64,000 nucleotides of DNA, taken from NCBI GenBank assembly GCA_963710565.1, contig CAVQAN010000009.1:756965-820964 (forward strand). Reading direction: 5' to 3'. This DNA is from Bryobacterales bacterium (GTDB lineage Bacteria; Acidobacteriota; Terriglobia; Bryobacterales; Bryobacteraceae). The translations under genes were made by a program, and so were the position numbers. Positions within the stretch are counted from its first letter, which is position 1, and every line of letters starts with the position of its first letter. Under the pieces are notes generated by a model, which worked only from the letters and a program-made list of their open reading frames with translations, made no database searches and was not told where the DNA came from. Below are positions 1 through 60,577 of the stretch, piece after piece.

Positions 1-2091
1 CCGCAATTCCTTGTCGTTGATGACCCGACGGTCCACCCCGGTTCAGCACGCTACGCTCGCGGCGATCTTCGCGGTTCCCGATGGCCCACGACCCCCGTAC
101 CAGTCTTCGCGAATTTGGCGTCAGCCCCCATCCTGGACGGCGACGCGCAAGCTGCCCAACACGCCATGGTCAACGGGTGGAACATAGGTAATAAGAAGTA
201 CTATATCGAGACGTCACAAGACCCTCGGCAGACAGGCTACGGCATCTTCTTCGATTACACCCAAGGCGGGGATTATCAACCGCTTCAATCGGATGGGAAG
301 ATGTGTGGTGCGCAGCAATTACTCGGATCCGTGCAGATTCTCGTCGGGCCCTGGGGAGCAAACGCGACCGCGTTAGGTGCCGGTAGCGAGCACGAGCTCG
401 GTCACGGCCTGGCTAAAATCCACACGCCCCCAAACGTGGTGAACGGCGTGGAGGACGACACGTTGATTATGAATGCGAATCTTTTTGAAACTGTCTCCAA
501 TACGTGGGAGGCGAACGGTCGGAGAGCGAACCGGGTGCAGCGCTACGCGAATCAAATACTCTATGACATGCCGCTCAAAGTAGGCACGGTGGACGGCGTT
601 GACTACTACACGAACGCGCTCTCCTACTCGAACCCGGGCGAGGACACCCCCGTCCTCGACCCGACGTACAACCCCATGCTCTGCACGTACAGGCTCACCC
701 CCATCAGGGATACGTTTCCTGCCCCCGGGGGGACGGGCACCATTCGCATTGACACGGCCAGCTATTGCCAGTGGAGCGCTTCCGACCCGGTTACGTGGAC
801 GACGCCAACCGGCGCGACCTCCGGCAAGGGACCGGGCACGTTCACATTCCAAGTCGCGCCGAACACCGGAGCCACGCGTACCGGCACGCTCACCATCGCC
901 GGCACCACCATCAAGATTGTAGAACTCGGAGACTCCGTAACAGGCGGCCTCTACTTCGTCCCCGTCACGCCGTGCCGCGTCGAGGACACACGCAACGGCA
1001 ACGGCCCCTACGGCGGACCGGCTCTCCAAGGCGGCGACACGCGCATCTTCAACATCCCGCAAAGCGGCTGTAACATTCCTTTTACAGCGAAAGCTTACTC
1101 GTTCAATGCGACGATCGTGCCGGTGAGCCAAGGGCCGGTCGGCTTCGTCACCCTATGGCCTGCCGGCCAAGCTCAACCCAACGCCTCCACGTTGAACTCG
1201 TGGGATGGCCGTGTGGTTGCGAACGCGGCCATCATACAAGCAGGTACCAACGGGGAGGTGAGCGTCTATTCCAGCCACCCGACGGATGTCATCCTTGATG
1301 TCAACGGATACTTTGACACGCTGAGCACGACGACCGCCTACTCGTTTTACCCGGTGACTCCGTGTCGCGTCGCGGACACACGTTGGCCGGTCGGAATTTT
1401 TGGTGGACCAGCCTTGGCTGATGACGAGACCCGGGACTTCCCCATCGCGAACAGCTCCTGCGGGATCCCGCCGGAAGCGACGGCCGGCTCGTTCAATTTC
1501 ACGGTCGTGCCGTCCGGGTACTTGGGGTATCTCAGCACGTGGCCGACTGGGGAGGACCAGCCAAACGTCTCTACGTTGAACTCGTGGGATGGCCGTGTGG
1601 TTGCGAACGCGGGGATTGTGCCCATGGGCACGAACGGCATTAATATGTTCGCCACAAACCAGACGCACGCGATCATCGACACGAACGGCTACTTCGCTCT
1701 CCCCGGGAGTCCGGGCGCGCTCCTCTTCCATCCGATGACGCCGTGCCGCGTCGAGGATACGCGGAACCCCGATGGTCCCTTTGGCGGGCCGATCCTGAAA
1801 GGCGGGACGGCGCGCTCGTTCGCGATCCCGGCGAGTGGGTGCAACGTGCCTAACACGGCCGCGGCGTACATCTTCAATCTGACGCTGGCACCAACACAGT
1901 ACCTGGGCTACGCGACCGTTGCGCCGACGGGGCCCCCGCTTCCCTACGTCTCCACCGATAACTCGTGGACTGGGACCGTCGTGGCGAACATGGCGATTGT
2001 CCCTGCGGGGATCAATGGATCCATCGATCTATATGTGACGCAGGATACGCACGCGATCCTCGACATCACCGGCTACTTCGCGCTCGAGTGA
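1..2091 (+). CDS. Secreted multidomain protein, paralog A of the C-terminal tri-module family: zincin-like metallopeptidase region + BACON-like Ig domain + 3 tandem ~115-aa PCRVxDTR modules. The reading frame is open to nt 1, so the 5' end may lie upstream
   Basis: ORF 115..2091 (alternative start; frame has no stop back to nt 1). HELGHGL zinc-binding-like motif. Segment 'TIRIDTASYCQWSASDPVTWTTPTGATSGKGPGTFTFQVAPNTGATRTGTLTIAGTTIKIVEL' fits the BACON pattern. Three repeats (FVPVTPCRVEDTR… / [13 protein letters not shown]… / FHPMTPCRVEDTR…), each ending …NGYF; the last runs to the stop. Confidence 0.6.
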   Translation, partial: PQFLVVDDPTVHPGSARYARGDLRGSRWPTTPVPVFANLASAPILDGDAQAAQHAMVNGWNIGNKKYYIETSQDPRQTGYGIFFDYTQGGDYQPLQSDGKMCGAQQLLGSVQILVGPWGANATALGAGSEHELGHGLAKIHTPPNVVNGVEDDTLIMNANLFETVSNTWEANGRRANRVQRYANQILYDMPLKVGTVDGVDYYTNALSYSNPGEDTPVLDPTYNPMLCTYRLTPIRDTFPAPGGTGTIRIDTASYCQWSASDPVTWTTPTGATSGKGPGTFTFQVAPNTGATRTGTLTIAGTTIKIVELGDSVTGGLYFVPVTPCRVEDTRNGNGPYGGPALQGGDTRIFNIPQSGCNIPFTAKAYSFNATIVPVSQGPVGFVTLWPAGQAQPNASTLNSWDGRVVANAAIIQAGTNGEVSVYSSHPTDVILDVNGYFDTLSTTTAYSFYPVTPCRVADTRWPVGIFGGPALADDETRDFPIANSSCGIPPEATAGSFNFTVVPSGYLGYLSTWPTGEDQPNVSTLNSWDGRVVANAGIVPMGTNGINMFATNQTHAIIDTNGYFALPGSPGALLFHPMTPCRVEDTRNPDGPFGGPILKGGTARSFAIPASGCNVPNTAAAYIFNLTLAPTQYLGYATVAPTGPPLPYVSTDNSWTGTVVANMAIVPAGINGSIDLYVTQDTHAILDITGYFALE

Positions 2092-16827: not shown

Positions 16828-17307
16828 ATGCGCGTTGTCATTCAGCGAGTCAGCCGGGCGCGGGTTGTAGTGGATGGGAAGACCGCCGGAACGATCGGGT
16901 CCGGCCTGGTCGTACTCCTGGGCGTCGGCAAGCACGATACCCGCACGGATGCGGACTATCTGGCGGACAAAGTCACCGGGCTGCGTGTCTTCCCCGACGA
17001 GGCGGGCAAAATGAACCTCAGCGTGATCGAGACCGGAGGCGCGCTGCTGATTGTGTCGCAGTTCACTCTGTACGGCGACTGCCGGAGGGGCCGCCGGCCG
17101 GGATTCGACATGGCCGCGCCGGCGGAGGAGGCCCGCGCTCTATATGAGTACTTCGTCGAAGCGTGCCGCAACAGGGGAGTGCCGGTGGAGACCGGTATCT
17201 TCCAGGCATCGATGGCGGTCGAGCTTACCAACGACGGGCCGGTAACTATTATCTGTGAGTCGGAGAAAGCGCGATATCGCAGTAAGTATTCCTATGCTAT
17301 CGTGTAG
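16828..17307 (+). CDS. dtd: D-aminoacyl-tRNA deacylase
   Basis: [34 protein letters not shown]…[31 protein letters not shown]…TNDGPVT. Classic Dtd; start is residue 9 of ORF 16804..17307. Confidence 0.85.
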
Positions 17308-17319
17308 TGGGGGTGAACT

Positions 17320-17610
17320 ATGCCGAGACACAAGACCGTGCAGAATTCCGAGTTGTTGACAAGCGGCGCTCGAGGGGCTGGAAGCGCAGAAGAAGCGGAT
17401 CGAGGAGCAGATTGGCCAGGTTCAGGCCATGCTCGGCCGGCGCCGGGGACGTCCGCCCGCGTCCGCGGCAGCCGCGCCCGCCGCGGAGAAGCCCGCCGGC
17501 ACGAGGAAACTGAGCGCCGCCGCTCGCAAGAGGATCGCCGCCGCCCAGAAACGGCGCTGGGCGGAGTACCGCAAGAAGGCAGAAGCCGAAGGAGTAGCAA
17601 AGTCAGTTCT
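17320..17610 (+). CDS. Small basic coiled-coil / KR-rich protein (possible nucleoid- or DNA-binding), reading frame uncertain
   Basis: MPRHKTVQNSELL… then in the +1 frame …LEGLEAQKKRIEEQIGQVQAMLGRRRGRPPASAAAAPAAEKPAGTRKLSAAARKRIAAAQKRRWAEYRKKAEAE. Looks protein-like but is split over two frames. 3' end undefined; it overlaps the antisense of the VWA gene. Confidence 0.25.
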
Positions 17611-17696
17611 GCGGCGCGGCGGAAACGCGTGGCGCGGCGGCATGCCGGTGGAAGCGCTGGACGACCCCCGCCGCGGGGCGTGGAGCGAGCGCCTCT

Positions 17697-19765
17697 CAGG
17701 GGACCAGGTCGAAGTCGATCCACTGCGAGGCGACGCCTTGTTGTCCCCTGGCCAGCGTGTCCCGAACGACGAACTGAAGCGCGTAGGTGCCTGCCTCGAA
17801 CGAATCCAGGCGCATGCTTCCCTTGGCGGTGGTGCGCGGCGAGGCCGGCCGCCCCGACCTCTAGTCTCGTTGGGTCCGTGGCGAGCACCTGCCGCTGTCC
17901 TTGAAACACGCGCACCTCGGTGTCGATGGCCGGCTTGCCGGTCTTACGGTCCAATCGCGCGTTGAAGATCTGGCAGGTGAAATCGAGCGCACTGCCGCGC
18001 CGGAACACACGGAATGCCGGAACGCCCGGGGCCTCCCGGTCCTGCGGCTGGCCGGCCGGGGTGTCGAGGACAAGCCCGGACAGGGCCAGCCGCCGCTTCT
18101 TCAGATCGGGCACCTCGAGGAACTGGCTCGCAGTTCCAATCCGTCCCGTGGCGGTGTCGCGAACGGCCACGCGGACCTGGTACGGTCCTGGCCGAACCAC
18201 CGGAATCGAGCTGGTGTAGACCAGACCGGCGCCGAGCGCGTACTCGTACCGGCGCGGCTTCAGCTTGATGATCGCCTTGTAGGACGCCTTGTCGACCGGC
18301 TGGCCACGCTCATCCACGGTGAACGCGAGCAGGTCGGCGGTTGCCTGCATGTCGCCGGCTTCGGGCGAAAAGGTGAGGTCGCGGGCGTCGATATGGAGCA
18401 GCAGCGTGATGGCGGTACGGGCGTCCGCGGCTTGGGCAAACACCGGGGTGAGGCGAAGGCGAACCGCGGAGGACTTGAAGGGCGAGAACAGAGCGGCGGC
18501 AAACTCGTCGTCCGTGCGCTTAGGAGAATCTTCGTAGCCGTAGTAACCCGATCGCGAACGAACGTGCAGCTTGGGAACCTTGACCTGCACCCTGATGGCG
18601 TGAAAGTCCGGTTGCTTGCCGTTGCGAGGCTGAAAACGCGCCGCATCGGGTTTGTAGCCGATCAGGTAGTAGCCTTCGAGATCCGTCAGGATTTGTCCCA
18701 AGCCGGAGTCAATGCGGTTGTTGTCATGGACCAGGAAACCGCCGGTCTCGTGGGACAGGACCTGGAGTCCCTCCTGATCCAGCAGCATGCCGGCGAGCGG
18801 GCTGCCGGCGCGGCCCAGGTTGCGAATGTCGTCCTTTGTGAGCCGGTCGGCCGCGCTGGGCGACAGGGGCTGAAGGCCCCGTGCATCGATGCTATAGAGC
18901 ACCACGGCGGCGCGATTGGCCTGGTCCGCCAACCGGCGAACCGCTTCCATGACGCGCTCGTCCGCCGCCCACGCGGGCTGGCCTGCGTAGCGAGGGGCCA
19001 CGGTTTCGCTGGGGCCCAGAATCGAGCGCAGCCGCAGCCCATCGGAGATGAGGATGAGCGACTTGCGCCCCGGCATCTCACGCATGCCGTCGACCAGGTA
19101 ACTCAGGGCGCCGAGGGTTCCGAGAGAGTAAGTGACGCGGCGGAACTGCGCCTCTTGCGATCGGGCGTTCAGGCCCGCGCCGGGGCCCGCAGCGACCGGC
19201 TCCATCGCCGAAAGGCCCGCGCGGCCACCCGGGTACCACCGCAGGCGTTCCACGGCGGCGAGCAGGAGGCTCCGGTCGTTGGTGAACTGATCGAGCGCAC
19301 CCATGCCGCCGCTGGTGCGCACGATGGCCGCCAGATCGCCCGGCTGAAGCTGCCGTTCGACGAACCGCTTGAGGTCGTGCCGCACCTCGCCCATGCTCTC
19401 GAATGAAAGGCCGAGGTCGTCCACAACCAGAACGATGGTGCGGCGAACTTCCTCGCGTATGACCGCAGAGTGCGCGGGAGGAGGCGGGGAACGGCGCCCC
19501 GTGGCGGCGCAGGCGGCGCCGGCGGGACGGCCGGTGAGGAGGGCGGAGCCAGCCGGATGTACGAGAAGTTTGTGATCTTCTGGGGCCGCCCGTCCTCTGT
19601 GATCTCGAAGTCCTCGGCTTTCAGGTCCGTGACCTGGCGGCCCTTGGAATCCGTCACCACCGCATCTACCTGAACCAGATTGACCGTGACCCGGATAACC
19701 GGCGACTCGACCTGGCCCGCCAGCGCCGCCGCCGCGGCCGCCGCCAACCATCTCAGTTGAAGCAT
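17697..19765 (-). CDS. VWA domain-containing protein of the Acidobacteria-type family (TIGR03436-like), with apparent frameshifts near 19500 and 17860
   Basis: Signal peptide + MLQLRWLAAAAAAALAGQVESPVIRVTVNLVQVDAVVTDSKGRQVTDLKAEDFEITEDGRPQKITNF (ORF 19169..19855) is the hallmark N-terminus. VWA core …IVLVVDDLGLSFESMGEVRHDLKRFVE… is in ORF 17292..19793. Family-typical C-terminus …LDSFEAGTYALQFVVRDTLARGQQGVASQWIDFDLVP is read in a third frame ending ~17697. Confidence 0.7.
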
Positions 19766-19855
19766 CGGTATCCTCCGAAACAGCCGAGTCCATCCTAAAC
19801 TCAGGGCGGCGGCGCCGCCTTTCCGGTTACCGCCCACGCCCATAATGAACCACAA

Positions 19856-21687: not shown

Positions 21688-22368
21688 ATGAAATTCGGAG
21701 TCGTAGTCTTCCCTGGCAGCAATTGCGATCACGACGCGTGGTATGCCGTGTCGCAAAACCTGGGCCAAAAGGCGGAGTTCCTGTGGCACGATGCGCCGCA
21801 GTTGGGCGACGTCGATGCCGTGATCCTGCCGGGCGGGTTCGCCTACGGAGACTATCTCCGCTGCGGCGCCATCGCCAAGTTTTCGCCGGTCATGGGCGCG
21901 GTGCGGAAGTTTGCCCAGGAGGGCGGGCTGGTTTTGGGTATCTGCAACGGTTTTCAGATCCTGGTGGAAAGCGGATTACTGCCCGGGGCGCTCATCCGCA
22001 ACCGCGGGTTGAAGTTCATCTGCCGTCCCGTGCGGCTGCGGACGGAAACCACGAATTCGCCTTTCACCTCCTGCGCCGGGAAGGGGCAGGTTCTGACTTT
22101 CCCCATCGCGCACGGCGAGGGTTGCTACTACGCGGACGAAGAAACGCTGGACCGGCTCGAGGCGGAAGACCGGGTCGTCTTTCGCTATCTCGATAACCCA
22201 AACGGGTCGCTCCGGGACATCGCCGGAGTTCTGAACGCAGGCCGCAACGTTCTGGGACTGATGCCGCACCCGGAACGCGCCGCCGATCCGCTGATGGGAT
22301 CGACCGACGGCCTGGTGGTGCTGCAATCGATGGTCGCGGCGCTGGCCGCCGAAACGCGCCGGGCTTAA
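21688..22368 (+). CDS. purQ: Phosphoribosylformylglycinamidine synthase subunit PurQ (glutaminase)
   Basis: [20 protein letters not shown]…[21 protein letters not shown]…GICNGFQIL…HGEG…MPHPER. Start is residue 14 of ORF 21649..22368. Confidence 0.9.
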
Positions 22369-22405
22369 GGCCGATGGCTGAAAGCTCACGGCGGATGGCT
22401 TCTTC

Positions 22406-24620
22406 ATGACAATTACTCCCGACCTCATCGCCACTCATCAACTCACTCCCGAAGAATACGCCAAGATAGTCGCCCTGCTGGGGCGGGAACCGAGTTACAC
22501 CGAGCTCGGCATCTTCAGCGTGATGTGGAGCGAACACTGCTCCTACAAGAGCTCGCGCCTGCACTTGAAGAAGCTGCCGACGCGTTCGGCGGCGGTGTTG
22601 CAGGGGCCGGGCGAGAACGCCGGCATTATCGACATCGGCGGGGGCTGGGCCATAGCTTTCAAAATCGAGTCGCACAACCACCCCAGCTTCATCGAGCCTT
22701 TCCAGGGCGCGGCGACGGGAGTGGGCGGCATTCTGCGGGACATCTTCACCATGGATGCGATGCCCATCGCGGTCATGGACTCGCTGCGCTTCGGCCCGCT
22801 GGACGACCCGGAATGCGGCCCGCGCAACCGCCGTATCCTCGGGGGCGTGGTCGCCGGCATCGCGCACTACGGCAACTGCTTCGGCGTGCCGACCATTGGC
22901 GGCGAGTGCATCTTCGAGCCGTGCTATAACGGCAACCCGCTGGTCAACGTCTTCGCTCTGGGCGTGTTCAAGAAGGACGAGATCTTCTACGCGCGCGCCA
23001 GCGGCGTGGGCAACCCGGTGGTGTACGTCGGCGCCAAGACGGGCAAGGACGGCATCCACGGAGCCTCCATGGCCTCGGCCGAGTTCAGCGAGGAATCCCA
23101 GCAGAAGCGGCCTACCGTGCAGGTGGGCGACCCGTTCATGGAGAAGCTGCTGCTGGAGGCCTGCATCGAGGCGATGCACACCGGCGCCGTGGTCGGCATT
23201 CAGGACATGGGCGCCGCCGGTCTGACTTGCTCGACTTGCGAGATGGCGAGCCGCGGCGGCACGGGCATCGAGATCGACCTGGCGCGGGTGCCGCAGCGGG
23301 AAACCGGCATGACTCCGTACGAGATCATGCTGTCGGAGTCGCAGGAGCGCATGCTGCTGGTGGTCGACAAGGGGCGCGAGGAGGAGGTCTTCCGCGTCTT
23401 CAGGAAGTGGGGGCTGGACGCGGTTGCCGTGGGCGTGGTGACCGACGACGGCAAGATGCGGGTGAGGGATCACGGCCAGGTGGTGGCCGAGATTCCGGCG
23501 CGCGAGCTGGCAGACGAAGCGCCGCTCTACGACCGCCCGCACACGCTGCCGTTCCGAACGGCTCCCATCGACGGCCCGGCCATTCCCGCGGGCAATTCCG
23601 AAGCCGATCTGCTGGCGCTGGTGGCTTCCGGCGACCTGTCCTCGAAGCGCTGGATCTGGGAGCAGTACGACCACCAGGTCCGCACCAACACCACGCAGGG
23701 GCCGGGCGGCGACGCCGCCATCGTGCGCATCAAGGAGACGGGCGCCTCGATGGCCATGGCGCTCGACGGCAACGGCCGCTACGCGTACCTGGGGCCGCGC
23801 GAAGGCGCCAGGCTCGCGGTGGCCGAATGCTGCCGGAATCTCTCGATCGTGGGCGCGGTGCCCGCGGCCGCGACCAACTGCCTGAACTTCGGCAATCCCG
23901 AGAAGCCCGAGATCATGGCGCAGCTCGTCGAGGCCATCGAGGGCATGGCCGAGGCCTGCCGCTTCTTCGAGACGCCCATTACGGGCGGCAACGTCAGCCT
24001 CTACAACGAAACGCTCGGAGAGGGCGTGTATCCCACGCCGGTGCTGGGCGTGGTGGGCCTGCTGCCGACCGGCCGCGCCGGTGACGATCGACTTCAAGGC
24101 GCCGGGCCGCTCCGTGCTCCTGCTGGGCGGATTGGGAGATTGCGATGACAGGCGCTTCGGGTCGAGCCAGTACGCCAAGATCGTTCTGAAGCAGCTCTGG
24201 GGTCTGCCCCCCGCGCTCGACATGGAATACGAGAAACGCGTGCAGGCGGCCATGCGCGCCATCGTGGCCGCCGGACTGGCCGAGTCCGCACACGACCTGA
24301 GCGACGGCGGGCTGGCCGTAGCGCTGGCGGAATGCTCCTTCGGCCCGGCCGGGGTGGGCGCCGCGCTCGATCTGTCGAGCGACCTGCGGCCCGAGTTCCT
24401 GCTGTTCCACGAAGGGCCGTCGCGCATACTCGTTTCGACGGAACGGCCGGGCGAGGTGCAGCGGATCGCCGAACAGCACGGCGTCCCGGCGCTGCCGGCG
24501 GGCACGGCCGTGGCCGGCCGCCTCTCGATTCGCAACCGGGGACGGACGCTGATAGACTGTGAACTGCGGCGCCTCCGCGAGACCTGGGAAGGGGCGCTCG
24601 AGGCGGCACTGCGGGGTTAG
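22406..24620 (+). CDS. purL: Phosphoribosylformylglycinamidine synthase subunit PurL, with an apparent 1-bp frameshift near 24070
   Basis: ORF 22406..24148 (…[18 protein letters not shown]…ESHNHPS…) carries the PurL N/central domains and goes off-frame after …[13 protein letters not shown] 24081..24620 ([17 protein letters not shown]…) is the PurL C-terminus in the next frame. Confidence 0.85.
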
Positions 24621-34957: not shown

Positions 34958-35510
34958 CTATGGCGCGAAATACCCGTTGATGTCCAGAATCACGTGCGTC
35001 GGGTCCGTCACGTAGACGCTGATCGCCCCGCTCGTCCCCGCCGGCACGATCGCCGCGTTCGCCACCACGCTGCCGTCCCACGAGTTCAACGTCGAAACGT
35101 TCGGCTGCGACGACCCTGTTGCCCACGCCGAGAGATACGAGAGCCGCGCATCGGGCACCACCGTCAGGTTCAGCGAGTACGCCGCCGCCGTCGACGGAAT
35201 GTTGCAGGCGCTGGCCGGGATCGCAAATGAGCGCGCGGTGGCCGCAGCCATCTCCGGCCCTCCGAACGGACCCGCGGGGTTGCGCGTGTCCGCCACGCGG
35301 CACGGCGTCACCGGATAGAAGTTCAGCGCCCCCGGACTCCCCGGCGCCGCGAAGTAGCCGTTGCCGTCCAGAATCACGTCCGTCGCGTTCGAAACGTACA
35401 CGGAGATCGACTCATTCGTCCCTGCCGGGACGATCGCGGCGTTCGCCACCACCTTGCCCGTCCAGGAGTTCAGCGTCGACGCCACCGGCGGCGCCTGCCC
35501 CGTCGGCCAG
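34958..35510. repeat. ~0.55-kb near-identical DNA repeat: 3' end of paralog B, duplicated in paralog C (offset 3945)
   Basis: Off-frame ORFs 35119..35550 and 39064..39495 translate almost identically. ORF 34217..35230 ends like 38939.. begins. Read directly: >95% identity over the first ~550 nt, lower beyond. Confidence 0.75.
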
Positions 35511-38500: not shown

Positions 38501-38849
38501 CTTGCCGCCGCTCGTGCGGCAACGCCTTGGGATCCCGCCGCTCCCCCGGCTGAGCAGCATGCACCGCTTCGGTATCGGTGAAGAAGGCCGTCATCCCGCC
38601 GCCGCGTGCCAGAAAACGCACCCGTGCATCGGTTTGCCCCAGGTTGGGCTCGAACGCTAGCGGCAGCTTCCCGTAACCCTCGGCCACCTGAGGCCTGCCG
38701 GCAGCGTCCCCGGCCAGGAACCGCGGTCCCGCGGGCAGCCTGGGCAGCGATAACAGCTTGCCCGTGGCCACCGTAAACTGAGCGCTCGCGGCGCCCGACA
38801 GCGCCAGCAGAGTGCCGGCGGTCCTAGCAACCGATGACAGCCTGGCCAC
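34958..38849 (-). CDS. Paralog B of the tri-module family: signal peptide + Acidobacteria-type N-domain + SBBP beta-propeller repeats + 2 Fn3 + 3 C-terminal modules. At least 4 apparent frameshifts between ~37000 and ~38500
   Basis: N-terminus [24 protein letters not shown]…[13 protein letters not shown] (ORF 38469..38849). …[55 protein letters not shown]… (ORF 37780..38481). SBBP repeats ([47 protein letters not shown]) are spread over ORFs 37389..37988, 37061..37795, 37002..37274 and 34958..36967. The last ORF also holds Fn3 (…SWNA..GA.SYDVY.G…[10 protein letters not shown]) and three PCRVADTR modules. Confidence 0.7.
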
Positions 38850-38902: not shown

Positions 38903-39455
38903 TCATGGCGCGAAGTACCCGTTGATGTCCAGAATCACGTGCGTCGGGTCGGTCACGTAGACGCTGATCGCCCCGCTCGTCCCCGCCGGCACGATCGCCG
39001 CGTTCGCCACCACGCTGCCGTCCCACGAGTTCAACGTCGAAACGTTCGGCTGCGCCGACCCTGTTGCCCACGCCGAGAGATACGAGAGCCGCGCGTCGGG
39101 CACCACCGTCAGGTTCAGCGAGTACGCCGCCGCCGTCGACGGAATGTTGCAGGCGCTGGCCGGGATCGCAAAGGAGCGCGTGGTGGCCGCAGCCATCTCC
39201 GGCCCTCCGAACGGACCCGCGGGGTTGCGCGTGTCCGCCACCCGGCACGGTGTCACGGGATAGAACGTCAGCGCCCCCGTACTCCCCGGCGCCGCGAAGT
39301 AGCCGTTGCCGTCCAGAATCACGTCCGTCGGGTTCGAAACGTACACGGAGATCGACTCATTCGTCCCTGCCGGGACGATGGCGGCGTTCGCCACCACCTT
39401 GCCCGTCCAGGAGTTCAGCGTCGACGCCACCGGCGGCGCCTGTCCCGTCGGCCAC
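38903..39455. repeat. Second copy of the ~0.55-kb near-identical repeat (3' end of paralog C)
   Basis: See 34958..35510. Confidence 0.75.
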
Positions 39456-41470
39456 GTCGTCAGGTAGCCCAGATACCCCGCGGGCACCACCGTGACGTTC
39501 AGCGAGTAGGCGCTGGCCGTTGGCGGAAGACCGCAGGAACTGAGGGGAATCGGGAAGTCCCGGCTTTGGCCGGCCGACATGGCAGGTCCGCCAAAAGTGC
39601 CAACGGGCATCCGCGTGTCGGCGATGCGGCACGGCGTGGCGGGATAGAACGCATACGAGCTGGGGCCGGTGGAGGTGTCAAAGTAGCCGTTGATGTCGAG
39701 GATCACGTCGGTCGTATCGGGAACATAGACGCTCACCGCCCCGCCGGTCCCGGCCGGCACGATGGCCGCGTTGGCCACCACGATCCCGCCCCAGGAGTTC
39801 AGCGTGGAGACGTTGGCCTGCGCCTGCCCGGTGGGCCACAGCGTCAGGTAGTAGAGTGGCCCCTCGGGCACCACGGTCACGTTCAACGAATAGGCCTGCG
39901 CCGTTCCGGGAATGCCGCAGGGGCTCTGCGGAATCGCAAAGGAGCGAGTAGAGCCGGGCGTCATGGTGGGACCGCCGAACGGCCCAGGGGCGTTCCGTGT
40001 GTCCACCACGCGGCAAGGCGTCACGGGGACGAAGCGCAGAGCCGTCGCGCCTCCCCCTGGCTGGTTCGAGGCTTGGTTGACTGCAATCGTCAGGCCGCCG
40101 GCGGAGATCTGCGCCGAGCGCCAAGGGCCAGGGTTGGCGGCCACGTTGAGCGTGACGGTGGCCGAATCGGCGCCGCTGGCCGGACCCGCCAGAGTGACCC
40201 AATCCGGCAGGTTCGAGATGGCCCATGGGCAGCCGATGCCGGTGGCGATGGTGAGCGGATAGCTCCCCCCAGCCACTGCAGCCTGGATCGAGGTGGAAGA
40301 AACGGAGTACCTGCAGTTGGCGCCCGAAGGGGCTACGTCGTACACGCTGACGTAGGCCTGGGACTGTCTGGTTTCCTCCAGGGTCGCGGGATCGACGGTG
40401 TCGACGTCGTAGGAGACATAGACGCGCCCGTTGTGGAGGATAAGCCAGGGCCGCCCCGCCAGTGTGTTGTTCGCGAGGCTGTAGTTGGTCACCGCCACGT
40501 CGTCGATGAGATTCCAGTTAAGATCGAATGCGGCCAGGTGTACATTGAATGCCGGGGGGAGGTACTGGGGAGCGGGGCGCGTTTGGCTGTCGTCCAGGTA
40601 GGCGACGAAGAACCGGTCGCCGTCGAATGCCAGGCCCTCGGAAAACTCGCCGTACGGCCGCAACGTTTGCTTGCCAAGAAGGCGCCAACTCGTGTCGTAG
40701 TGCATCACGTCCACCTCGCCCAGGAACGCGCTGCCGGTAACCAAATGGTAGACCCCGTTGACGAAGATCATGGACGATCCGCAGATCTGCGGTGGGTTGT
40801 CCAGTATCATCCTGCCCTCCGTCACCAACGCGGGGGAGAAGAAGTAGTGGTAGGTCGCGGCTCCGGTGAAGAAATCAGGGGGCGTTCCCGAGGCGTTGTT
40901 GTTGTATTGCGAGCTGACGTCCAGTTGTCCGTTGACGAAGGCGACCATCGGATCGTTCTCGGCCTCTTGCGGATCCACGATGGAAAGGTAGATTTCGGAT
41001 TCGATCTGCCAGCTCACGGCGTCGAATTTCATGAGCTTCCAGCCATGGAAACCGGGGATTTCGGGCACGTAGTCGGGAGCCCAAGCGAAGTAGTAATCGT
41101 TCCCGACCATCACCGATCCCGAGTCGTTTGCCTCGAACCCGGCGGCGTGGTCCCGGACGAAGTAATCCGCTTGGCCGGTCGGATTCATGTCCAGGTCGTA
41201 TTCCTTATAGGCATACCCGGCTCTTTGATCGGCCGCGGAGGAGGGCGGCTTGGTGCCGAATGTCACCACCAGGCGATCCGTCGCGGGGACGTAGTTAACC
41301 CGCGCGAAACCGCCCGTTCCAAAGGTCCCATCCGGCGCCACCTGAACGGTGCGTACGAACTGAAACACTCCCGTTCCCGTGCCGGCAGTTTCGGCGTTCG
41401 CCGGGGCGCCGCCGACGGCGGCCGTTCCCGGTATGCAGACCAGCATCGCTACCGCTAGAACGCGTTTCAC
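38903..41470 (-). CDS. Paralog C of the tri-module family: signal peptide + ~400-aa unknown beta-rich (glycosidase/propeller-like?) domain + BACON-like domain + 3 C-terminal modules. Intact frame
   Basis: 855 aa, GTG start with AAGGAGG RBS. MKRVLAVAMLVCIPGTAAVGGAPANA. BACON-like CRYSVSSTSIQAAVAGGSYPLTIATGIGCPWAISNLPDWVTLAGPASGADSATVTLNVAANPGPWRSAQISAGGLTIAVNQ. Then LRFVPVTPCRVVDTR…/[13 protein letters not shown]…/[13 protein letters not shown]…INGYFAP-stop. Confidence 0.8.
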   Translation of the reverse strand: MKRVLAVAMLVCIPGTAAVGGAPANAETAGTGTGVFQFVRTVQVAPDGTFGTGGFARVNYVPATDRLVVTFGTKPPSSAADQRAGYAYKEYDLDMNPTGQADYFVRDHAAGFEANDSGSVMVGNDYYFAWAPDYVPEIPGFHGWKLMKFDAVSWQIESEIYLSIVDPQEAENDPMVAFVNGQLDVSSQYNNNASGTPPDFFTGAATYHYFFSPALVTEGRMILDNPPQICGSSMIFVNGVYHLVTGSAFLGEVDVMHYDTSWRLLGKQTLRPYGEFSEGLAFDGDRFFVAYLDDSQTRPAPQYLPPAFNVHLAAFDLNWNLIDDVAVTNYSLANNTLAGRPWLILHNGRVYVSYDVDTVDPATLEETRQSQAYVSVYDVAPSGANCRYSVSSTSIQAAVAGGSYPLTIATGIGCPWAISNLPDWVTLAGPASGADSATVTLNVAANPGPWRSAQISAGGLTIAVNQASNQPGGGATALRFVPVTPCRVVDTRNAPGPFGGPTMTPGSTRSFAIPQSPCGIPGTAQAYSLNVTVVPEGPLYYLTLWPTGQAQANVSTLNSWGGIVVANAAIVPAGTGGAVSVYVPDTTDVILDINGYFDTSTGPSSYAFYPATPCRIADTRMPVGTFGGPAMSAGQSRDFPIPLSSCGLPPTASAYSLNVTVVPAGYLGYLTTWPTGQAPPVASTLNSWTGKVVANAAIVPAGTNESISVYVSNPTDVILDGNGYFAAPGSTGALTFYPVTPCRVADTRNPAGPFGGPEMAAATTRSFAIPASACNIPSTAAAYSLNLTVVPDARLSYLSAWATGSAQPNVSTLNSWDGSVVANAAIVPAGTSGAISVYVTDPTHVILDINGYFAP

Positions 41471-41640
41471 AGCCTGTTCCTCCTTTTCAGTTCCGGAAGT
41501 CCCACGCGGGCCACACAGTAAGCTCTACTACCCTCTGCCGTGGCTGAAGTTAGGCAAAATGCGACACCACGCCGTATGTCGTCTATTGCCGTCCTCTGCC
41601 GGGAGGGGTATCCTTGTTGCGATAATCGCGGGACTCACAT

Positions 41641-43683
41641 ATGAAGCCTCTCCGGGCGAAACAGCCGGTGCAGCCGGACCCAGCCGGTGAACGGCTTGAA
41701 TCCTGGAAGGAGATCGCCCGGCACCTGAATCGCGACGTCCGAACCGTGCAGCGCTGGGAGCAGAGCAAGGATCTCCCGGTGCGGCGACTGCCCGGCGGCG
41801 ATATGGCGCGGGTCTACGCCCTGCGCTCGGAGTTGGACGCCTGGTGGAATAGCCGGGGAATCCACCTGACCCCGGGGGCGGAGGGCGCGGCGGTGGAGCC
41901 GGCAAGCGCGCCGCGCAGCCCGGCGCGGATTTGGGCGGGAGTGGCTGTGGGGCTGGCTGTGCTGGCGGCGCTGACGGTCTGGGGGCTGCACCGGAAGCCT
42001 GGCGTATCGGCGCCCCTCCGGGTCGTCCCGCTCACCAGCTTGGGCGGAGAGGTCGGTTACCCGTCGTTCTCGCCGGACGGCAAGCAGGTGGTCTTCGTCT
42101 GGAACGGAGAGAAACAGGACAACCACGACTTGTACGTCCGGCAAATCGGGGTGGGCGAACCATTGCGCCTCACCAGGGACCCGGCCATGGACTCCTGGCC
42201 CTCCTGGTCCCCCGATGGACGGCAGATCGCCTTCGTTCGCTGGCGAATCGGGCAGCCGAAGTTGGAGCTCCGGGTCATCCCGGCGCTGGGCGGAACGGAC
42301 CGGCTCCTGGCGGAACGTCCGGTCCCTGAGGTTTGGCCGGTTCCGGCGGCGAGCTGGACTCCGGATAGCCGGTGGCTGATCTGCGGTCTCCCCGGCGCCA
42401 CGACTCACACCTCGCTGGTCCTGCTATCGGTCGAGACCGGTGAACAGCGGCGCCTGACCTCGCCACCCGAGGGATGGGACGGGGACGATTCCCCCGTGCT
42501 CAGCCCGGATGGACGCCAGGTGGCGTTCATACGGCGGAACGGTGTCGAATCTGGCAATGTCTTTCTGCTTAACCTCAGGCGCGATTACAGCGCGCAAGGC
42601 GAGCCTCAACAGTTGACCCACGAGGCATGCTGCGCCGTGAATCCGCTTTGGACCGCCGACGGCAGCGAGATCCTGTACCTCACCAGCGACCAGGACATTT
42701 CGACGCTACACCGAATTCCGGCGCACCCGGGCGGGCAGCCCCGGATCGTGGATACCATCGGCGCCATGGGCAACCAGCTCGCGATCTCCCGGCAGGGCGA
42801 CAGACTGGTCTACGTCGGCGGCCAGACGGATTCCGACCTCTGGCGCGTCGAGCTTCCAAGGCACGGCGTTCCCGGCGCGACCCTCGCGGCGCGGCGGGTG
42901 CTCTCCTCCAGCCGCATGGAGGCCTTTCCGGACATTTCGCCGGACGGGAAGCGGGTGGCCTTCGGCTCGAACCGGTCGGGGACGTTCGAAGTCTGGCTGG
43001 CAGAGGCGGATGGCTCCGGCGCGGTGCAGGTGACTGCGCTGGGTGGCCCTCCCGCCCTGCTGCCGAGGTTGTCGCCGGACGGCAAACAGATCGCCTATAA
43101 CGCCAACCTGGATGGAAGCCGGGATGTCTACGTCGTCGGCGCCGAGGGTGGAGTTCCTCGCCGCCTGACGCGGGCCTCCGGGGGTAACATAGCGCCCACC
43201 TGGAGCCGGGACGGGAAGTGGGTTTACTTCGCCAGTGGCCGCAGCGGGAGCTTCCAATGCTGGAAGGCCCCGAGCGATGGGGGCGCCGCCACCCAGATCA
43301 CCAGGAACGGCTGTTTCGGTGGGTTCGAGTCCGTGGACGGTCGAAGCCTGTACTATGCGAAGGATTGGGGCCCAGCGCCGATCTGGCAGGTTCCCGCGGG
43401 CGGCGGGGAAGAGCGGCCCGTCGGTCCCGCGGTCGAGACTTTCCGGGTTCCATGGAACTTCGCAGTGACCGCGGGCGGGATCTACACCCCGGCGACCACG
43501 AATCCGCTGGCCGGCTTCGAGGTGAGGTTCTATTCGTTCGCCACCGGAGCCACCGAGATTCTGGGAAGAGTCGAGAAACCGTTTGGGCGCTCCATGTCGG
43601 TCTCTCCGGACGGCCGCTGGCTGCTCTTCCAGGACTACCCGGCGCGCCGCGGTGACCTGATGCTGGTGGAGAACTTCCGGTAG
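41641..43683 (+). CDS. Membrane-anchored transcriptional regulator: N-terminal HTH DNA-binding domain + single TM helix + periplasmic TolB-like (PD40/WD40-like) beta-propeller
   Basis: 680 aa. GERLESWKEIARHLNRDVRTVQRWEQSKDLPVRRL (Acidobacteria-type HTH). TM IWAGVAVGLAVLAALTVWGL. Repeated SPDGKQ/SPDGRQ/SWSPDG…(V/I)AF motifs typical of TolB/PD40 blades. Embedded inside the paralog cluster. Confidence 0.7.
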   Translation: MKPLRAKQPVQPDPAGERLESWKEIARHLNRDVRTVQRWEQSKDLPVRRLPGGDMARVYALRSELDAWWNSRGIHLTPGAEGAAVEPASAPRSPARIWAGVAVGLAVLAALTVWGLHRKPGVSAPLRVVPLTSLGGEVGYPSFSPDGKQVVFVWNGEKQDNHDLYVRQIGVGEPLRLTRDPAMDSWPSWSPDGRQIAFVRWRIGQPKLELRVIPALGGTDRLLAERPVPEVWPVPAASWTPDSRWLICGLPGATTHTSLVLLSVETGEQRRLTSPPEGWDGDDSPVLSPDGRQVAFIRRNGVESGNVFLLNLRRDYSAQGEPQQLTHEACCAVNPLWTADGSEILYLTSDQDISTLHRIPAHPGGQPRIVDTIGAMGNQLAISRQGDRLVYVGGQTDSDLWRVELPRHGVPGATLAARRVLSSSRMEAFPDISPDGKRVAFGSNRSGTFEVWLAEADGSGAVQVTALGGPPALLPRLSPDGKQIAYNANLDGSRDVYVVGAEGGVPRRLTRASGGNIAPTWSRDGKWVYFASGRSGSFQCWKAPSDGGAATQITRNGCFGGFESVDGRSLYYAKDWGPAPIWQVPAGGGEERPVGPAVETFRVPWNFAVTAGGIYTPATTNPLAGFEVRFYSFATGATEILGRVEKPFGRSMSVSPDGRWLLFQDYPARRGDLMLVENFR

Positions 43684-43870
43684 CTTGCGGCCGGGTTACT
43701 CGACATAGACGCATTGGACGCGAGGGCCGATGCGTAACGGCCCGGTCTTGAGCCAGTCGGCGAGTCTCCAGCGAAGCGCCCGCGGCTGCTTGCCCTACGG
43801 CGCGAAACACCCGCTGACGTCGAGGATCGCGTGGGCGTCGTTGGTCACGAAGATGGACGGCCCGGGCGTG

Positions 43871-44886
43871 CTACGGCGCGAAATAGCCGTTGATATCGAG
43901 AATTACCTGCGTCGGGTCTGTCACGTAGACGCTGATCGCCCCGCTCGTCCCCGCCGGCACGATCGCCGCGTTCGCCACCACGCTCCCGTCCCACGAGTTC
44001 AACGTGGAGACGTTCGGCTGCGCCGACCCCGCCGCCCACGCCGAGAGGAACGAGAGCCGCGCGTCGGGCACCGCCGTCACGTTCACCGAATACGCCGCCG
44101 CCGTCGACGGAATGTTGCAGGCGCTGGCCGGAATGGCGAAAGAGCGCGTCGTGGCCGCCGCCATCTCCGGCCCTCCGAACGGGCCCGCGGGGTTGCGTGT
44201 GTCCGCCACGCGGCACGGCGTCACCGCGTAGAACGTCAGCGAGCCCGTACTGCCCGGCGGCGCGAAATAGCCGTTGCCGTCCAGAATCACGTCTGTCGGA
44301 TTCGAGACGTACACCGAGATCGACTCGTTGGTCCCCGCCGGGACGATCGCGGCGTTCGCCACCACCTTGCCCGTCCAGGAGTTCAGCGTCGACGCCACCG
44401 GCGGCGCCGATCCCGTCGGCCAAGTGGTCAAAAAGCCCAGATAGCCTGCCGGAACCACCGTGAAATTGAGCGAGTACGCGCTCGCCGTTGGCGGAAGACC
44501 GCAGGAACTGAGGGGGATCGGGAAGTCGCGGCTTTGGGCGGCCGACATCGTAGGTCCGCCGAACGTGCTCGCGGGCATCCGCGTGTCGGCGATGCGGCAC
44601 GGTGTGGCGGGATAGAACGCATACGAACTGGGGCCGGTGGAGGTGTCGAAGTAGCCGTTGATATCCAGGATCAGGTCGGTGGTATCGGGGACATAGACGC
44701 TCACGGCCCCGCCGCTACCGGCCGGAACGATGGCCGCGTTGGCCACCACGATCCCGCCCCAGGAGTTGAGCGTGGAGACGTTGGCCTGCGCCTGCCCGGT
44801 GGGCCACAGCGTCAGGTAATAGAGCGGACCCTCGGGCACCACCGTCACGTTCAACGAATAGGCCTGAGCCGTGTTCGGGAATGCCG
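43871..44886. repeat. ~1.0-kb near-identical (about 97%+) DNA repeat: 3' end of paralog D, duplicated in paralog F
   Basis: Constant offset of 12383 nt to 56254..57268. Identical off-frame ORFs on both strands (43730..45001 vs 56290..57303; 44004..44231 vs 56387..56614; 44197..44463 vs 56580..56846; 44428..44622 vs 56811..57005). Identity collapses abruptly at ~44886/57268. Confidence 0.8.
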
Positions 44887-51917: not shown

Positions 51918-51940
51918 GCTCCTGTCGCTCCGAGAGTGAA
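50480..51940. repeat. Internal ~732-bp tandem duplication (2 units) encoding the N-terminal domain + Fn3 of paralog D
   Basis: Off-frame ORFs 50570..50881 and 51305..51601 translate near-identically at a 732-nt offset. In-frame protein shows AVTYAYTGNHFNDFNNGNPGINHYPLTNADFITASFTFAKPLPANLLQQP… repeated as AVIYTYTGSHFNDVNSENSGINSYPLTNADFITASFTFAKPLPANLLQQP…. Confidence 0.6.
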
Positions 51941-52229: not shown

Positions 52230-55200
52230 TTACGGCGCGAAGTACCCGTTGATGTCGAGAATCACGTGCGCCGGGTCCGTCACGTAGATGCTGATCGCTC
52301 CACTGGTCCCCGCCGGCACGATGGCGGCGTTGGCCACCACGCTGCCGTCCCACGAGTTCAGGGTCGAAACCACCGGCGCGCCCGAACCCGCCGGCCAGGC
52401 CGAGAGGAAAGAAAGCCGCCCGTCGGGCACGACTGTTACGTTTAGCGAGTACGCCGCTGCCGTCGAGGGGATGTTGCAGACACTGGCCGGGATCGCGAAC
52501 GAGCGCGTCGTCCCCGCCGCCATCTCCGGACCGCCGAACTGGTCGGCGGGATTGCGCGTGTCCGCCACCCGGCACGGTGTCACCGGGTAGAACGACAACG
52601 CCCCCGCGCCCCCCGGCGCGGCAAAGTACCCGTTGCCGTCGAGAATCACGTCCGTCGGGTCGGAGGCGAACACCGAGATCGATCCATTGGTCCCCGCCGG
52701 CACAAGCGCGGCATTCGCCACCACCTTGCCGGTCCAGGAATTCAGCGTGGAGGCGTTGGGCTGAGCCTGCCCCGTTGGCCAAGTGCTTAAAAAACCGAGA
52801 TAGTTCGTGTCCGGCACCGCCGTGACATTCAACGAGTAGGCCCGTACCGTGGCTGGGAAGCCACAGGAACTCATGGGAATGGGAAAACCCCTGGTCTGGC
52901 CGCCGTACATGGAAGGCCCTCCGAACTGGCCGGTGGGGCTTCGGGTGTCGGCGATGCGGCACGGCGTGACGGGATAGAACAAATACGAAGTCGGGCCACT
53001 GGAGGTGTCGAAGTAGCCGTTGATGTCCAGGATCACGTCGGTCGCATCGGGGACGAAGACGCTCACTGCCCCGCCCGTCCCGGCCGGAACGATGGCGGCG
53101 TTGGCCACCACGATCCCGCCCCAGGAGTTCAGGGTGGAGACGTTGGCCTGCACCTGCCCGGTGGGCCACAGCGTCAAGAAGTAGAGCGGCCCCTGCGGCA
53201 CCACCGTCACGTTCATCGAATACGCCAGAGCCGTGCCCGGGATACCGCATGGGCTCTGGGGAACGGGAAACGAGCGCGAAGAATTGGCCGTCATGGTCGG
53301 CCCGCCAAACACCCCGGCCCCGCCCCGGGTATCCGCCACGCGGCATGGGGTCACCGGAATGAAGTGCAGGCCAACTACCGCGACGCCCGTCGTGAAGGAC
53401 CACGTCGCGGAGGGAGTAGATCCGACATCGTTCTGGGCCACCACCTGCCAGTAGTACGTCGTGCCCGGGAGCAGCGCCCCGGGTGCGTAACTGGTGCCGG
53501 TCGTGGTCCCGATCAAGGGTGGCGGAGAGGATGTTCCGAAGTGGACTTGGTAGAAGGTCGCGCCGCTTGCGGCCTTCCAGTCCATCATCGGCGCGAGCAC
53601 GACACCGCCAGCCTCGTTGCCCGGAGACACCAGAACGGGCGCGGCGGGCGGTGGAATGACGTTGTCCGAATCGCTGGTACCGGTTGCCGGTGAGCCACCG
53701 CCCGACACGGAGGCGTAATTCACCACCTGCGTACCCCCGGTCGCGACCGCGCTCACGGCCGCCGCCACCGTGATGGGAGGATAGCTGGAGCCGGCACTCA
53801 GCACATCGGCGCGCGTGCAGAAGGAACTCGAGCAGCTCCAGCCCGTGCCGCTCATGGACACCAGCAGCAGACTGGTGGGGAGCGAGTCCGTCACCAACAC
53901 GGTGCCGCTCGTGGCCCCCGCCCCGGCGGCGTTGCTCACCACCACGGAGTACGTCGCATTCTGCCCCCGCCCCCAGCCTTCGGGAGTGGGTCTTGGCGGC
54001 CATCAGAAGGGCATGCGATCCACCCGGCGTCAGCACCCGCACAGCGCCGTTGAGCTCGTCGGCGATGTAGACGTTGCCGGCTGTGTCCAAGGCCACGTCA
54101 TCGGGCTGCTGGATGGTGGCACTGGCCGCTGGGCCTCCATCGCCCGTGTACCCCCCTCCGCGCACCAGCGATGAGATGTTGCCATCGAGACCCACCTTGC
54201 GAATCGTCTCGTTATTGCAGTCCGCGATGTAAATGTTGCCGGAGGCATCCACCGCCACGGCCACGGGGGAGTTGAGGCTGGCGGCGGTCGCCGGCCCTCC
54301 GTCGCCCCGGTAGCCCTGGGTACCGTTGCCGGCCACCGTGGTGATGGTGCCGTTGGCCGACACCTTGCGGATCGCGTTGTTCCCGCAGTCGGCAATGTAG
54401 AGGTTGCCGGCGGCGTCCACCGCTACACCCTCCGGGTATTTGAGCTGAGCGGAGGTGGCCGCCCCTCCGTCGCCCGAGAAGCCCTGGGTACCGTTGCCGG
54501 CCACCGTCGTGATGATGCCGCCCGCCGTTACTTTGCGAATCCTGGAGTTGCCGGTGTCCGCGATGTAGACATTCCCGGCAGCATCCACTGCTACACCCAG
54601 AGGCGCGCAGAGTTCGGCGCTGGTGGCGGGTCCTCCATCGCCCAAGGAGCCATAGCAGTTGCCGGTGCCGGCCACCGCGGTGATGGTGCCGGTGGCCGCC
54701 ACCTTGCGAATCCTGTTGTTGCCCTCGTCGGCAATGTAGAGGTTGCCGGCGGCATCCACCGCTATACCCCACGGGTCGTCGAGCTGAGCGGAGGTGGCCG
54801 GGCCATTGTTGCCCGAGTAGCCCCTCGTGCCGTTGCCCGCCGCAACCGCGACTGTGCCATTTGCGGCTACCTTAAATACCCGGTACGCGACAACGTCCAC
54901 GATGAATAGATTGCCGGAGGCATCGGCCGCCACGGCAGTGGGGCCGCCCAGCGGAACGGCGGTCGCCGGACCTCCGTCGCCGGGGTAACTGAACATCCCG
55001 TTGCCCGCTACGGTCGAGATGGCGCCACTGCCCCCCACCTTTCGAATCCGTGCGTTGCCCGAGTCCGTCAGGTAGAGGTTGCCGGCCGAGTCCACCGCCA
55101 GGCCGTCCGGGTAATCCAGTTGGGCGCTGCCAGCCGGAGCTCCGTCGCCCGAGAAGCCCCGGGTACCGCTGCCGGCCACCGTGGTGAGGGTGCCGTTGGC

Positions 55201-60337: not shown

Positions 60338-60577
60338 GGATGCTCCTACGAACCGATGTTGACCGACCCGCGAGCCGTCCCGGGGCGCTCCGGCATCCCG
60401 GACAGAGCAATCATCGGTCTTTTCTCCCGTTCGACACGGTCCGACCCGACGATTGATAGCATACCCGCCCAGGCGGGTTCTCTCAAGCCAAAAATGAAGC
60501 AACGCACGGCGCGCTAGTACCAGGAGTACTACGCCACCAGACGTCCGCCGCAGGATTGGCTCCGTGTTGGCGGACCA

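Follow-up and report, generated by a model that had tools for sequence, protein, structure and literature searches.

A predicted membrane-tethered regulator with a MerR/excisionase-type winged helix-turn-helix, tandem PD40 propellers and a divergent palindrome-bearing promoter in a Bryobacterales surface-protein cluster

The DNA analysed here is a stretch of 64,000 nucleotides (the window) from contig CAVQAN010000009.1 of a Bryobacterales bacterium. Within a cluster of surface-protein genes it harbors a gene for a 680-residue protein that combines a DNA-binding helix-turn-helix (HTH) domain, a transmembrane (TM) helix and a propeller-type sensor, and which is predicted to be a membrane-tethered regulator (Table 1). 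The open reading frame (ORF) displays GC contents of 0.68/0.54/0.82 at the three codon positions, a coding-type pattern typical for real genes of this window of about 66% GC, and ORFs overlapping it in other frames bear an antisense GC signature. Moreover, full-length homologues with up to 90% and 78% identity exist. A preliminary description made from the sequence alone had given exact coordinates for this ORF and had placed it as the only plus-strand gene in a minus-strand cluster of about 25 kb, divergent from the surface-protein gene paralog C. Both statements hold: a gene call based on GC at the third codon position (GC3) finds no other plus-strand gene between ~34958 and 60502, and the divergent gap has the length of 170 bp reported before. 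Positions 39902–43901 of the window recur with 100% identity in an independent short-read assembly (L104), and the junction between promoter and paralog C is therefore no assembly artefact.

The AlphaFold model of the regulator, calculated with 40 homologues in the alignment, has a mean predicted local distance difference test score (pLDDT) of 85.7. Its N-terminal HTH domain is composed of two helices (residues 22–28 and 33–43), a β-hairpin wing (strands 48–50 and 57–61) and a third helix (residues 62–76). Following a linker (residues 77–100) with pLDDT values below 50, the chain forms the TM helix (residues 99–117 in the model) and continues as an all-β part spanning residues 127–680. The TM helix is the only hydrophobic helix of the protein and reaches a Kyte-Doolittle mean of 2.0 over 19 residues. 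By domain logic we infer that the HTH domain is cytoplasmic and that the propellers are periplasmic.

In the all-β part, seven stretches match PD40 (E 4e-48), accompanied by a match to DPPIV_N (Pfam). The whole model matches tandem-propeller proteins in Foldseek, Tricorn (1k32) and TolB, and homologues of the regulator carry the precomputed Pfam labels Tricorn_N and Tricorn_2nd; on account of these matches and labels the sensor is regarded as two propellers rather than one. The architecture of the preliminary description, an HTH domain, one TM helix and a PD40/TolB propeller of about 550 residues, therefore stands with respect to HTH, TM helix and PD40 repeats, but its propeller part is a tandem pair instead of a single propeller.

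Despite this resemblance the regulator belongs neither to TolB nor to Tricorn protease. TolB shares the PD40 repeats and a similar propeller fold; the regulator, however, lacks the N-terminal TolB domain, the α/β domain which binds TolA, and carries an HTH domain and a TM helix at its N-terminus. Its match to the TolB-propeller model (NCBIfam TIGR02800) is confined to the propeller and, with 196.7 bits, lies below the equivalog cut-off of 343.15. A tolQRA-tolB-pal cluster is missing as well: tol and pal genes are absent near the regulator and from the contexts of its relatives, and its neighbours in the window are surface-protein genes. Assignment to Tricorn protease was rejected since the regulator has no PDZ or serine-peptidase domain and ends at residue 680, directly after the second propeller.

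The HTH domain is the best-conserved segment of the family, with a mean column identity of 64% and the consensus RLDSWKEIAxYLxRDVRTVQRWE..GLPVHRL...VYA.KSELDAWW. The comparison list for this domain is headed by the gpNu1-type terminase winged HTH (7lxs) and RppC/TerS (7.0 each), followed by the excisionase RdfS (6.7), by BldC and the excisionase AlpA (6.5 each) and by the MerR-family proteins CvkR and BmrR (6.4). The sequence profile points weakly to gpNu1, RacA and BldC, and weak NCBIfam matches of the regulator were obtained with BldC, MADS1 and 'carph-isopro'. Trans_reg_C (PF00486) was not found by the Pfam scan of the regulator. The domain is a winged HTH of the MerR/excisionase/gpNu1/BldC type and not of the OmpR type found in ToxR and CadC.

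An N-terminal winged HTH of the MerR/excisionase fold is present in the regulator, and the coiled-coil dimerisation helix and the effector domain of MerR are absent from the model, which contains only the 15-residue helix 62–76 ahead of linker and TM helix. MerR operators carry their dyad inside an over-long promoter spacer of 19–20 bp; here the palindrome described below overlaps the −35 element of a predicted promoter with a spacer of 17 nucleotides. Membership in MerR proper was rejected on these two grounds, that is, the missing coiled-coil and effector domains and a palindrome located upstream of the −35 element and not within a 19–20-nucleotide spacer. None of the MerR-superfamily and excisionase-like HTH proteins used for comparison (lambda gpNu1, BldC, AlpA/RdfS/Xis, RacA, MerR/BmrR) is membrane-anchored with a periplasmic sensor, in contrast to the regulator.

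The intergenic region common to the regulator and paralog C contains an operator-like imperfect palindrome of 38 bp. Alignment of the window with the corresponding regions of the related loci L001, L009 and L005 revealed that the arms of the palindrome are kept while its centre varies, and that it persists between orthologues of only 62% protein identity. The predicted −35 hexamer of the regulator promoter overlaps the right arm, and both hexamers occupy invariant or near-invariant columns in the four orthologous regions, the −10 element reading TATCCT, TATGCT or TATACT. A strict sigma-70 scan of positions 41300–44000 did not call this promoter, and a terminator scan of the same segment gave terminator-like matches at chance level only. 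No Rfam match was obtained for positions 41200–41900 (E ≤ 1), which therefore hold no known RNA element. An alternative reading of the palindrome as an extracytoplasmic function (ECF)-type promoter was rejected, because the distance of about 22 nucleotides between GGCAA and CGTC does not fit.

The palindrome is closely tied to regulator genes. When scored over 24 conserved positions, it reaches 21 or more in nine distinct regulator loci, located 131–164 nucleotides before the codon for the HTH tryptophan. Random 330-nucleotide windows of the same loci (2000 draws) reached at most 17, with a single exception of 24, which is probably a real site in a duplicate locus. In 1.39 Mb of related loci, scores of 19 or more were confined to sites beside regulators; the exceptions were an additional copy in L009 and a weak site in L062. 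A metagenome scan with the exact pattern yielded 15 loci: nine have an HTH gene 120–165 nucleotides from the palindrome (including two duplicates of genome loci in the set), in three an HTH gene lies 1–3 kb away, and three contigs end too near the site to tell. Within the 64-kb window there is one site at up to three mismatches, compared to 0.01 expected, and the half-site does not recur elsewhere in the window at up to two mismatches. The half-site itself comes in two forms: GCGTC (L011, L019, L021, L089, L102) co-occurs with the recognition-helix and wing variants RTLQ, RTVM, RTIQ and LPI, and GCGAC (window, L001, L005, L010, L020, L090) with RTVQ and LPV. This may be a weak hint, from a small sample, that the specificity of half-site and HTH domain co-varies.

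On the other side of the divergent promoter, the relatives carry a small secreted protein. In the loci of the 78%-identical homologue (L001–L004) the regulator is divergent from a secreted protein of 166 residues which has no Pfam match, and at the 62%-identical homologue (L005–L008) the sole conserved neighbour is a small secreted protein of 179 residues, 43% identical to the former. The secreted partners form one family characterized by a signal peptide and the motif C-x5-GTY/W ... DC[TS], with about 140 residues per domain and the domain present singly or in tandem; sequence searches against Pfam, NCBIfam and the PDB yielded no match. The palindrome stays with the secreted-protein gene also in three metagenome loci, representing two distinct arrangements, in which no regulator is divergent from that gene. 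Of these, L093 and L102 have a convergent regulator, and the palindrome is found upstream of the gene for the secreted protein; in L098 this secreted gene again follows the palindrome, with a partial TPR gene beside it whose HTH part is off the contig. The secreted protein is thus a conserved partner of this regulator clade, with the palindrome upstream of its gene. Other genes also occupy this position: a secreted carboxylesterase gene follows the palindrome in L092, and the divergent gene of L094 and L096 encodes an RCC1-repeat secreted protein.

In the window the small secreted gene is absent altogether, and its place has been taken by paralog C. The DNA between regulator and paralog C in the window is 70–71% identical to that between regulator and small gene in L001 and L009. 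Window positions 41440–41681 align to L001 9799–10041, which run from the first ten codons of the small gene across the intergenic region into the start of the regulator, and positions 41250–41421 align to L001 9005–9182, inside the gene for a 700-residue surface protein. Between these two blocks about 620 bp of L001, that is, the start of the surface gene, a spacer and almost the entire small gene, are replaced by 18 nucleotides. According to this alignment, the first ~10 codons of paralog C (41441–41470), its ribosome-binding site (RBS) and its promoter derive from the small secreted-protein gene of the relatives. The N-termini agree with each other (MKRVLAVAML in paralog C, MKRILAVALL in the small protein of L001), and a strong RBS, AAGGAGG, is located seven nucleotides before the GTG start of paralog C. 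Since the small gene is adjacent to the regulator also in distant relatives (L005, L011, L021, L090), this adjacency is ancestral and the arrangement of the window is derived. Through the loss of about 0.6 kb the small gene was eliminated, and its promoter with the palindrome, its RBS and its first ~ten codons were fused to paralog C, which was therefore most likely captured as direct target of the regulator.

The 700-residue protein of L001–L004, encoded beyond the small gene, matches paralog C in the N-terminal and BACON-like parts with 77% identity. It ends, in L001 (7117–9219), in the TIGR03437 Soli_cterm domain (213 bits) and not in the C-terminal tri-module of paralog C. The orthologous heads, L001 7117–9219 and window 38903–41470, thus bear different C-terminal modules, which, as judged by sequence comparison, have evidently been swapped between the two surface-protein orthologues. 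L009 carries a duplication of 139 nucleotides of the divergent promoter with the palindrome in it (6759–6897 and 9791–9929, 88% identity); one of the copies is followed by an NHL/BACON-like surface gene that adjoins the regulator, the other by the small secreted gene at a distance of 3 kb. Here, for a second time and independently, a surface-protein gene landed on the divergent promoter.

The preliminary description had proposed that the regulator controls the adjacent surface-protein genes with a tri-module C-terminus, and had looked to conserved synteny and shared upstream motifs for support. For the link to paralog C this remains plausible, since a clade-specific palindrome is situated in the shared intergenic region; it does not hold for the cluster as a whole. 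Neighbourhood clustering of three genes on each side of 52 distinct regulator loci did not detect any broadly recurring neighbour family. Tri-module linkage was present in two of these loci, the window and L020, and the small secreted protein was a neighbour of the closest relatives only. The tri-module is present in six genes of the window, of which five form the minus-strand cluster (~34958–60502) and the sixth, 115..2091 (+), lies far outside. No k-mer of at least eight nucleotides (7–12 nucleotides, both strands) was common to three or more of the five available paralog upstream regions, one of which (upstream of 36967) proved to be coding, and 7-mers stayed below the shuffle expectation. 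The palindrome is likewise absent from the other upstream regions. Moreover, a tri-module/DUF7948/FG-GAP cluster of another genome has no such regulator within 10 kb on either side.

The regulator belongs to a very large family. A search with the full-length protein gave at least 5,393 matches, which are named 'Tol biopolymer transport system component', 'PD40 domain-containing protein' or hypothetical. A profile of the HTH domain retrieved 12,662 clusters at 50% identity (E ≤ 1e-3), 10,512 of them at E ≤ 1e-10, and at least 580 confirmed stretches in species-representative genomes. Nearly all of these HTH domains are from Acidobacteriota (Bryobacterales, Terriglobales, Vicinamibacteria, Holophagae, Thermoanaerobaculia), with a few in Binatia and others. 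At family level its neighbours are variable. Two of the outcomes that the preliminary description had itself listed against control of the cluster were thus found, and that claim is not sustained.

The family is built in a modular way. Its HTH domain is joined either to PD40 propellers, in proteins of ~680 residues, or to TPR arrays, in proteins of ~545–580 residues, and both sensors occur among the palindrome-bearing regulators. Conversely, in about 30 of the best 120 full-length matches a Ser/Thr kinase (Pkinase) replaces the HTH domain on the same propeller module, with 41–46% identity and 82–88% query coverage, and the proteins P0099 and P0103 carry Trans_reg_C on a propeller module homologous to that of the regulator. 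The propeller is therefore a shared sensor module, 41–46% identical to that of many Pkinase-TM-PD40 proteins, and since one sensor has three outputs and one output has two sensors, the regulator can be described as a modular transmembrane signalling protein. Other members of the family (P0068, P0361–P0393) include some with two or three tandem HTH copies and many proteins of 70–118 residues with nothing but the HTH domain, some encoded on contigs of more than 100 kb. Like BldC, the HTH domain may also act as a soluble or tandem DNA binder.

A survey of transmembrane transcriptional regulators (TTRs), defined by a DNA-binding domain and at least one TM region, listed 321 TTRs with PD40 (e.g. 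'Trans_reg_C,PD40,PD40', 665 residues) and 151 with HTH_17, and found TTRs to be enriched in Acidobacteriae (PMC10269533). The regulator has both a recognisable DNA-binding domain and a predicted TM region; it fits this generic class, of which proteins combining a MerR/Xis-type HTH with PD40 or TPR sensors are a variant, very abundant in Acidobacteriota and for the most part misannotated or not annotated. The survey used Pfam thresholds, below which the HTH domain of the window falls, and did not describe an operator or a partner gene for PD40/HTH_17 TTRs (PMC10269533). A description of the regulator family was not found in a literature search.

Taken together, we favour with moderate confidence a membrane-tethered regulator whose HTH domain binds the palindrome, probably as a dimer, and which controls its own and the divergent promoter in response to a cue sensed by its propellers. 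The propellers would detect an envelope or extracellular signal, and the winged HTH, tethered by the ~20-residue linker and a single TM helix, would engage the palindrome. By way of the overlap with the −35 element the regulator would act on its own promoter, and this overlap suggests autorepression. The divergent promoter would be controlled as well, which means the small secreted gene in the relatives and paralog C in the window. Because the other tri-module genes have neither the palindrome nor a shared motif and the tri-module linkage is not conserved, control by the regulator is probably limited to its own gene and paralog C and does not extend to the whole cluster; for the other five tri-module genes there is no sign of direct control.

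Several observations weigh against this interpretation. The match of residues 23–72 to HTH_17 is sub-threshold (21.7 bits, cut-off 27; Pfam), although conservation within the family and the predicted fold confirm the HTH domain. Positive charges are located at both flanks of the TM helix, whose orientation is deduced from domain logic. A promoter of the divergent gene was not found by the strict sigma-70 scan. For family members outside the palindrome clade, enrichment of generic upstream inverted repeats was not significant (p = 0.19), which limits the operator claim to the palindrome clade. Finally, the tie between palindrome and regulator is guilt by association, and a different factor could bind the site.

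In a variant of this model, the protein is an inactive membrane precursor from which a periplasmic signal, through regulated proteolysis, frees a soluble HTH fragment of about 90 residues that acts on the operator. The disordered linker of ~20 residues between HTH domain and TM helix would suit such a cleavage, and the many HTH-alone proteins of 70–118 residues, some on long contigs, indicate that the domain can evidently work without membrane anchor. However, these short proteins may be fragments or frameshifted gene calls, there is no site-1 or site-2 protease gene in the window and none recurs in the neighbourhoods of the relatives, and ToxR and CadC work while membrane-bound (PMC10269533). 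Release by proteolysis is therefore considered unlikely.

It appears equally improbable that the regulator is no transcription factor at all, being instead a membrane-anchored, TolB/Tricorn-like periplasmic scaffold or peptidase accessory whose HTH domain tethers DNA in a RacA-like manner or binds protein, with the palindrome belonging to a different regulator. The database names of the homologues quoted above fit such a role, and the nearest HTH matches include RacA and small terminase subunits, none of them classical regulators. Yet the TolB score is far below its cut-off (196.7 bits versus 343), HTH domain and TM helix replace the N-terminal TolB domain, no tol-pal genes are nearby and neither a peptidase nor a PDZ domain is present. 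In addition, the HTH domain is the most conserved segment of the protein, it is swapped for kinase and Trans_reg_C outputs on the same sensor, and a specific palindrome travels with the genes that carry it.

Although the regulator is the sole plus-strand gene inside the ~25-kb cluster, although a tri-module gene lies within 1 kb upstream of the related regulator in L020, and although a surface-protein gene is found near the regulator in close relatives (immediately divergent in L009, one gene away behind the small gene in L001), a ToxR/CadC-like master regulator of all adjacent tri-module genes is very improbable, given the absence of Trans_reg_C, the lack of any shared upstream k-mer, a palindrome and half-site found nowhere else in the 64 kb, linkage in two of 52 loci, the regulator-free cluster of the other genome and the Soli_cterm end of the paralog C orthologue in L001; with the tri-module in more than 6,537 proteins and the HTH domain in 12,662 clusters, chance adjacency is plausible.

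The favoured model of a membrane-tethered regulator acting on its own and the divergent promoter shares features with ToxR and CadC, to which the regulator had been likened in the preliminary description, and with TcpP. The topology agrees: in a single polypeptide, encoded near its presumed target promoter, one TM helix connects a cytoplasmic DNA-binding domain at the N-terminus to a periplasmic sensor at the C-terminus, as in a one-component transmembrane transcription factor. The DNA-binding domain, however, is of the MerR/excisionase type instead of the OmpR-type winged helix. The periplasmic fold of ToxR and CadC differs from the tandem PD40 propeller, the putative operator of the regulator is an inverted repeat, and its partner gene is divergent, not co-transcribed, and missing in the window. 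Lacking the defining OmpR-type domain, the regulator is outside the ToxR/CadC family. The adjacent gene of the relatives for a small periplasmic or secreted partner is reminiscent of ToxS and TcpH. Acidobacterial Pkinase-TM-PD40 kinases have the same sensor module as the regulator but a kinase as output in place of a DNA-binding domain. By analogy only, M. tuberculosis PknD, a Ser/Thr kinase with an NHL propeller sensor, may be compared with them.

Table 1. Positions of the regulator, its domains, the shared intergenic region, the tri-module copies and the secreted-partner genes. Positions refer to the window, those of secreted-partner genes to the respective locus.
Feature	Position	Strand	Basis
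Membrane-tethered regulator gene (HTH, TM helix, tandem PD40 propellers), 680 residues, ATG start	41641..43683	+	ORF, GC3, homologues, AlphaFold model
Cytoplasmic winged HTH, residues ~18–76	41692..41868	+	
Single TM helix, residues ~97–117, preceded by disordered linker of ~20 residues	41929..41991	+	hydropathy, AlphaFold
Periplasmic sensor, two tandem PD40-type β-propellers, residues ~125–680 (~555 residues)	42013..43680	+	Pfam, NCBIfam, AlphaFold, Foldseek
Divergent intergenic region common to regulator and paralog C, 170 bp	41471..41640	.	ORF positions
Operator-like imperfect palindrome GGCAAAATGCGACA-N10-TGTCGTCTATTGCC, 38 bp; arms 41553–41566 and 41577–41590	41553..41590	.	conservation, specificity scans
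Predicted regulator promoter: −35 TTGCCG 41586–41591, 17-nucleotide spacer, −10 TATCCT 41609–41614	41586..41614	+	inference from sequence
Paralog C, 855 residues (N-terminal domain, BACON-like domain, tri-module), likely direct target	38903..41470	-	
Tri-module copy	38906–40030		
Tri-module copy	958–2082		
Tri-module copy	34961–36085		
Tri-module copy	43874–44896		
Tri-module copy	52233–53360		
Tri-module copy	56257–57381		
Secreted-partner gene, L001	9329–9829		
Secreted-partner gene, L005	9269–9808		
Secreted-partner gene, L009	6273–6767		
Secreted-partner gene, L011	9307–9804		
Secreted-partner gene, L090	1008–1499		
Secreted-partner gene, L100	586–1107		
Secreted-partner gene, L021/L101			
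Secreted-partner gene, L093			
Secreted-partner gene, L102/L098			

The tri-module consists of three repeats of about 125 residues ('TPCR..DTR ... ILD.NGYF') and gave no match to Pfam or NCBIfam models. It was found in more than 6,537 database proteins, attached to heads that include BACON, NHL, DUF11, GH16, YD, fn3, serine protease and CarboxypepD_reg, and appears to be a so far undescribed module at the C-terminus of secreted acidobacterial proteins. Of the six tri-module genes in the window, at least four are split into two or three overlapping ORFs in a frameshift-like manner (34958–38849, 43871–51953, 52147–56100 and 56254–60502, all on the minus strand). The giant gene has a 1-nucleotide insertion relative to paralog C near position 44885, a DUF7948 domain is split at 38469–38481, and SBBP coding sequence can still be read in the segment 36968–37779. 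P0250 (571 residues), a public gene call, apparently equals ORF 52230..53945, and the breaks are therefore also present in the deposited assembly. Two further ORFs, 17292..19793(-) and 22064..24535(-) (833 and 823 residues), were rejected as surface genes, since their GC peaks at codon position 1 and they have no family matches; they are probably not genes. ORF 22406..24148 (+), opposite 22064..24535, has a coding GC signature.

As a wider conjecture, which we regard as possible if rather doubtful, the more than 12,000 HTH clusters may constitute a major unrecognised class of acidobacterial TTRs in which a TM helix joins a MerR/Xis-type winged HTH to a PD40 or TPR sensor. Each would form a two-gene module with a 'C-x5-GTY' secreted protein, which would serve both as regulated output and as periplasmic ligand or co-sensor in a ToxS-like feedback loop, and the divergent promoter would be a recurrent capture site for surface-protein genes, as exemplified by paralog C, the NHL/BACON-like gene of L009 and the carboxylesterase gene of L092.

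How the Acidobacteriota, abundant soil bacteria that are difficult to culture, sense their environment is almost undescribed. For annotators, the position of the regulator in a surface-protein cluster is no evidence for a cluster-wide regulon. The family supplies a candidate operator, GGCAAnAnGCGACA-N10-TGTCGCnTnTTGCC, together with a defined partner gene, both of which are testable without genetics in the native host. The locus moreover provides a clean example of regulatory rewiring, in which a 0.6-kb deletion placed a large surface protein under the promoter of a small secreted protein. If the proposed function is true, about 12,600 clusters presently labelled 'Tol biopolymer transport component' or 'hypothetical' would become membrane-bound transcription factors.

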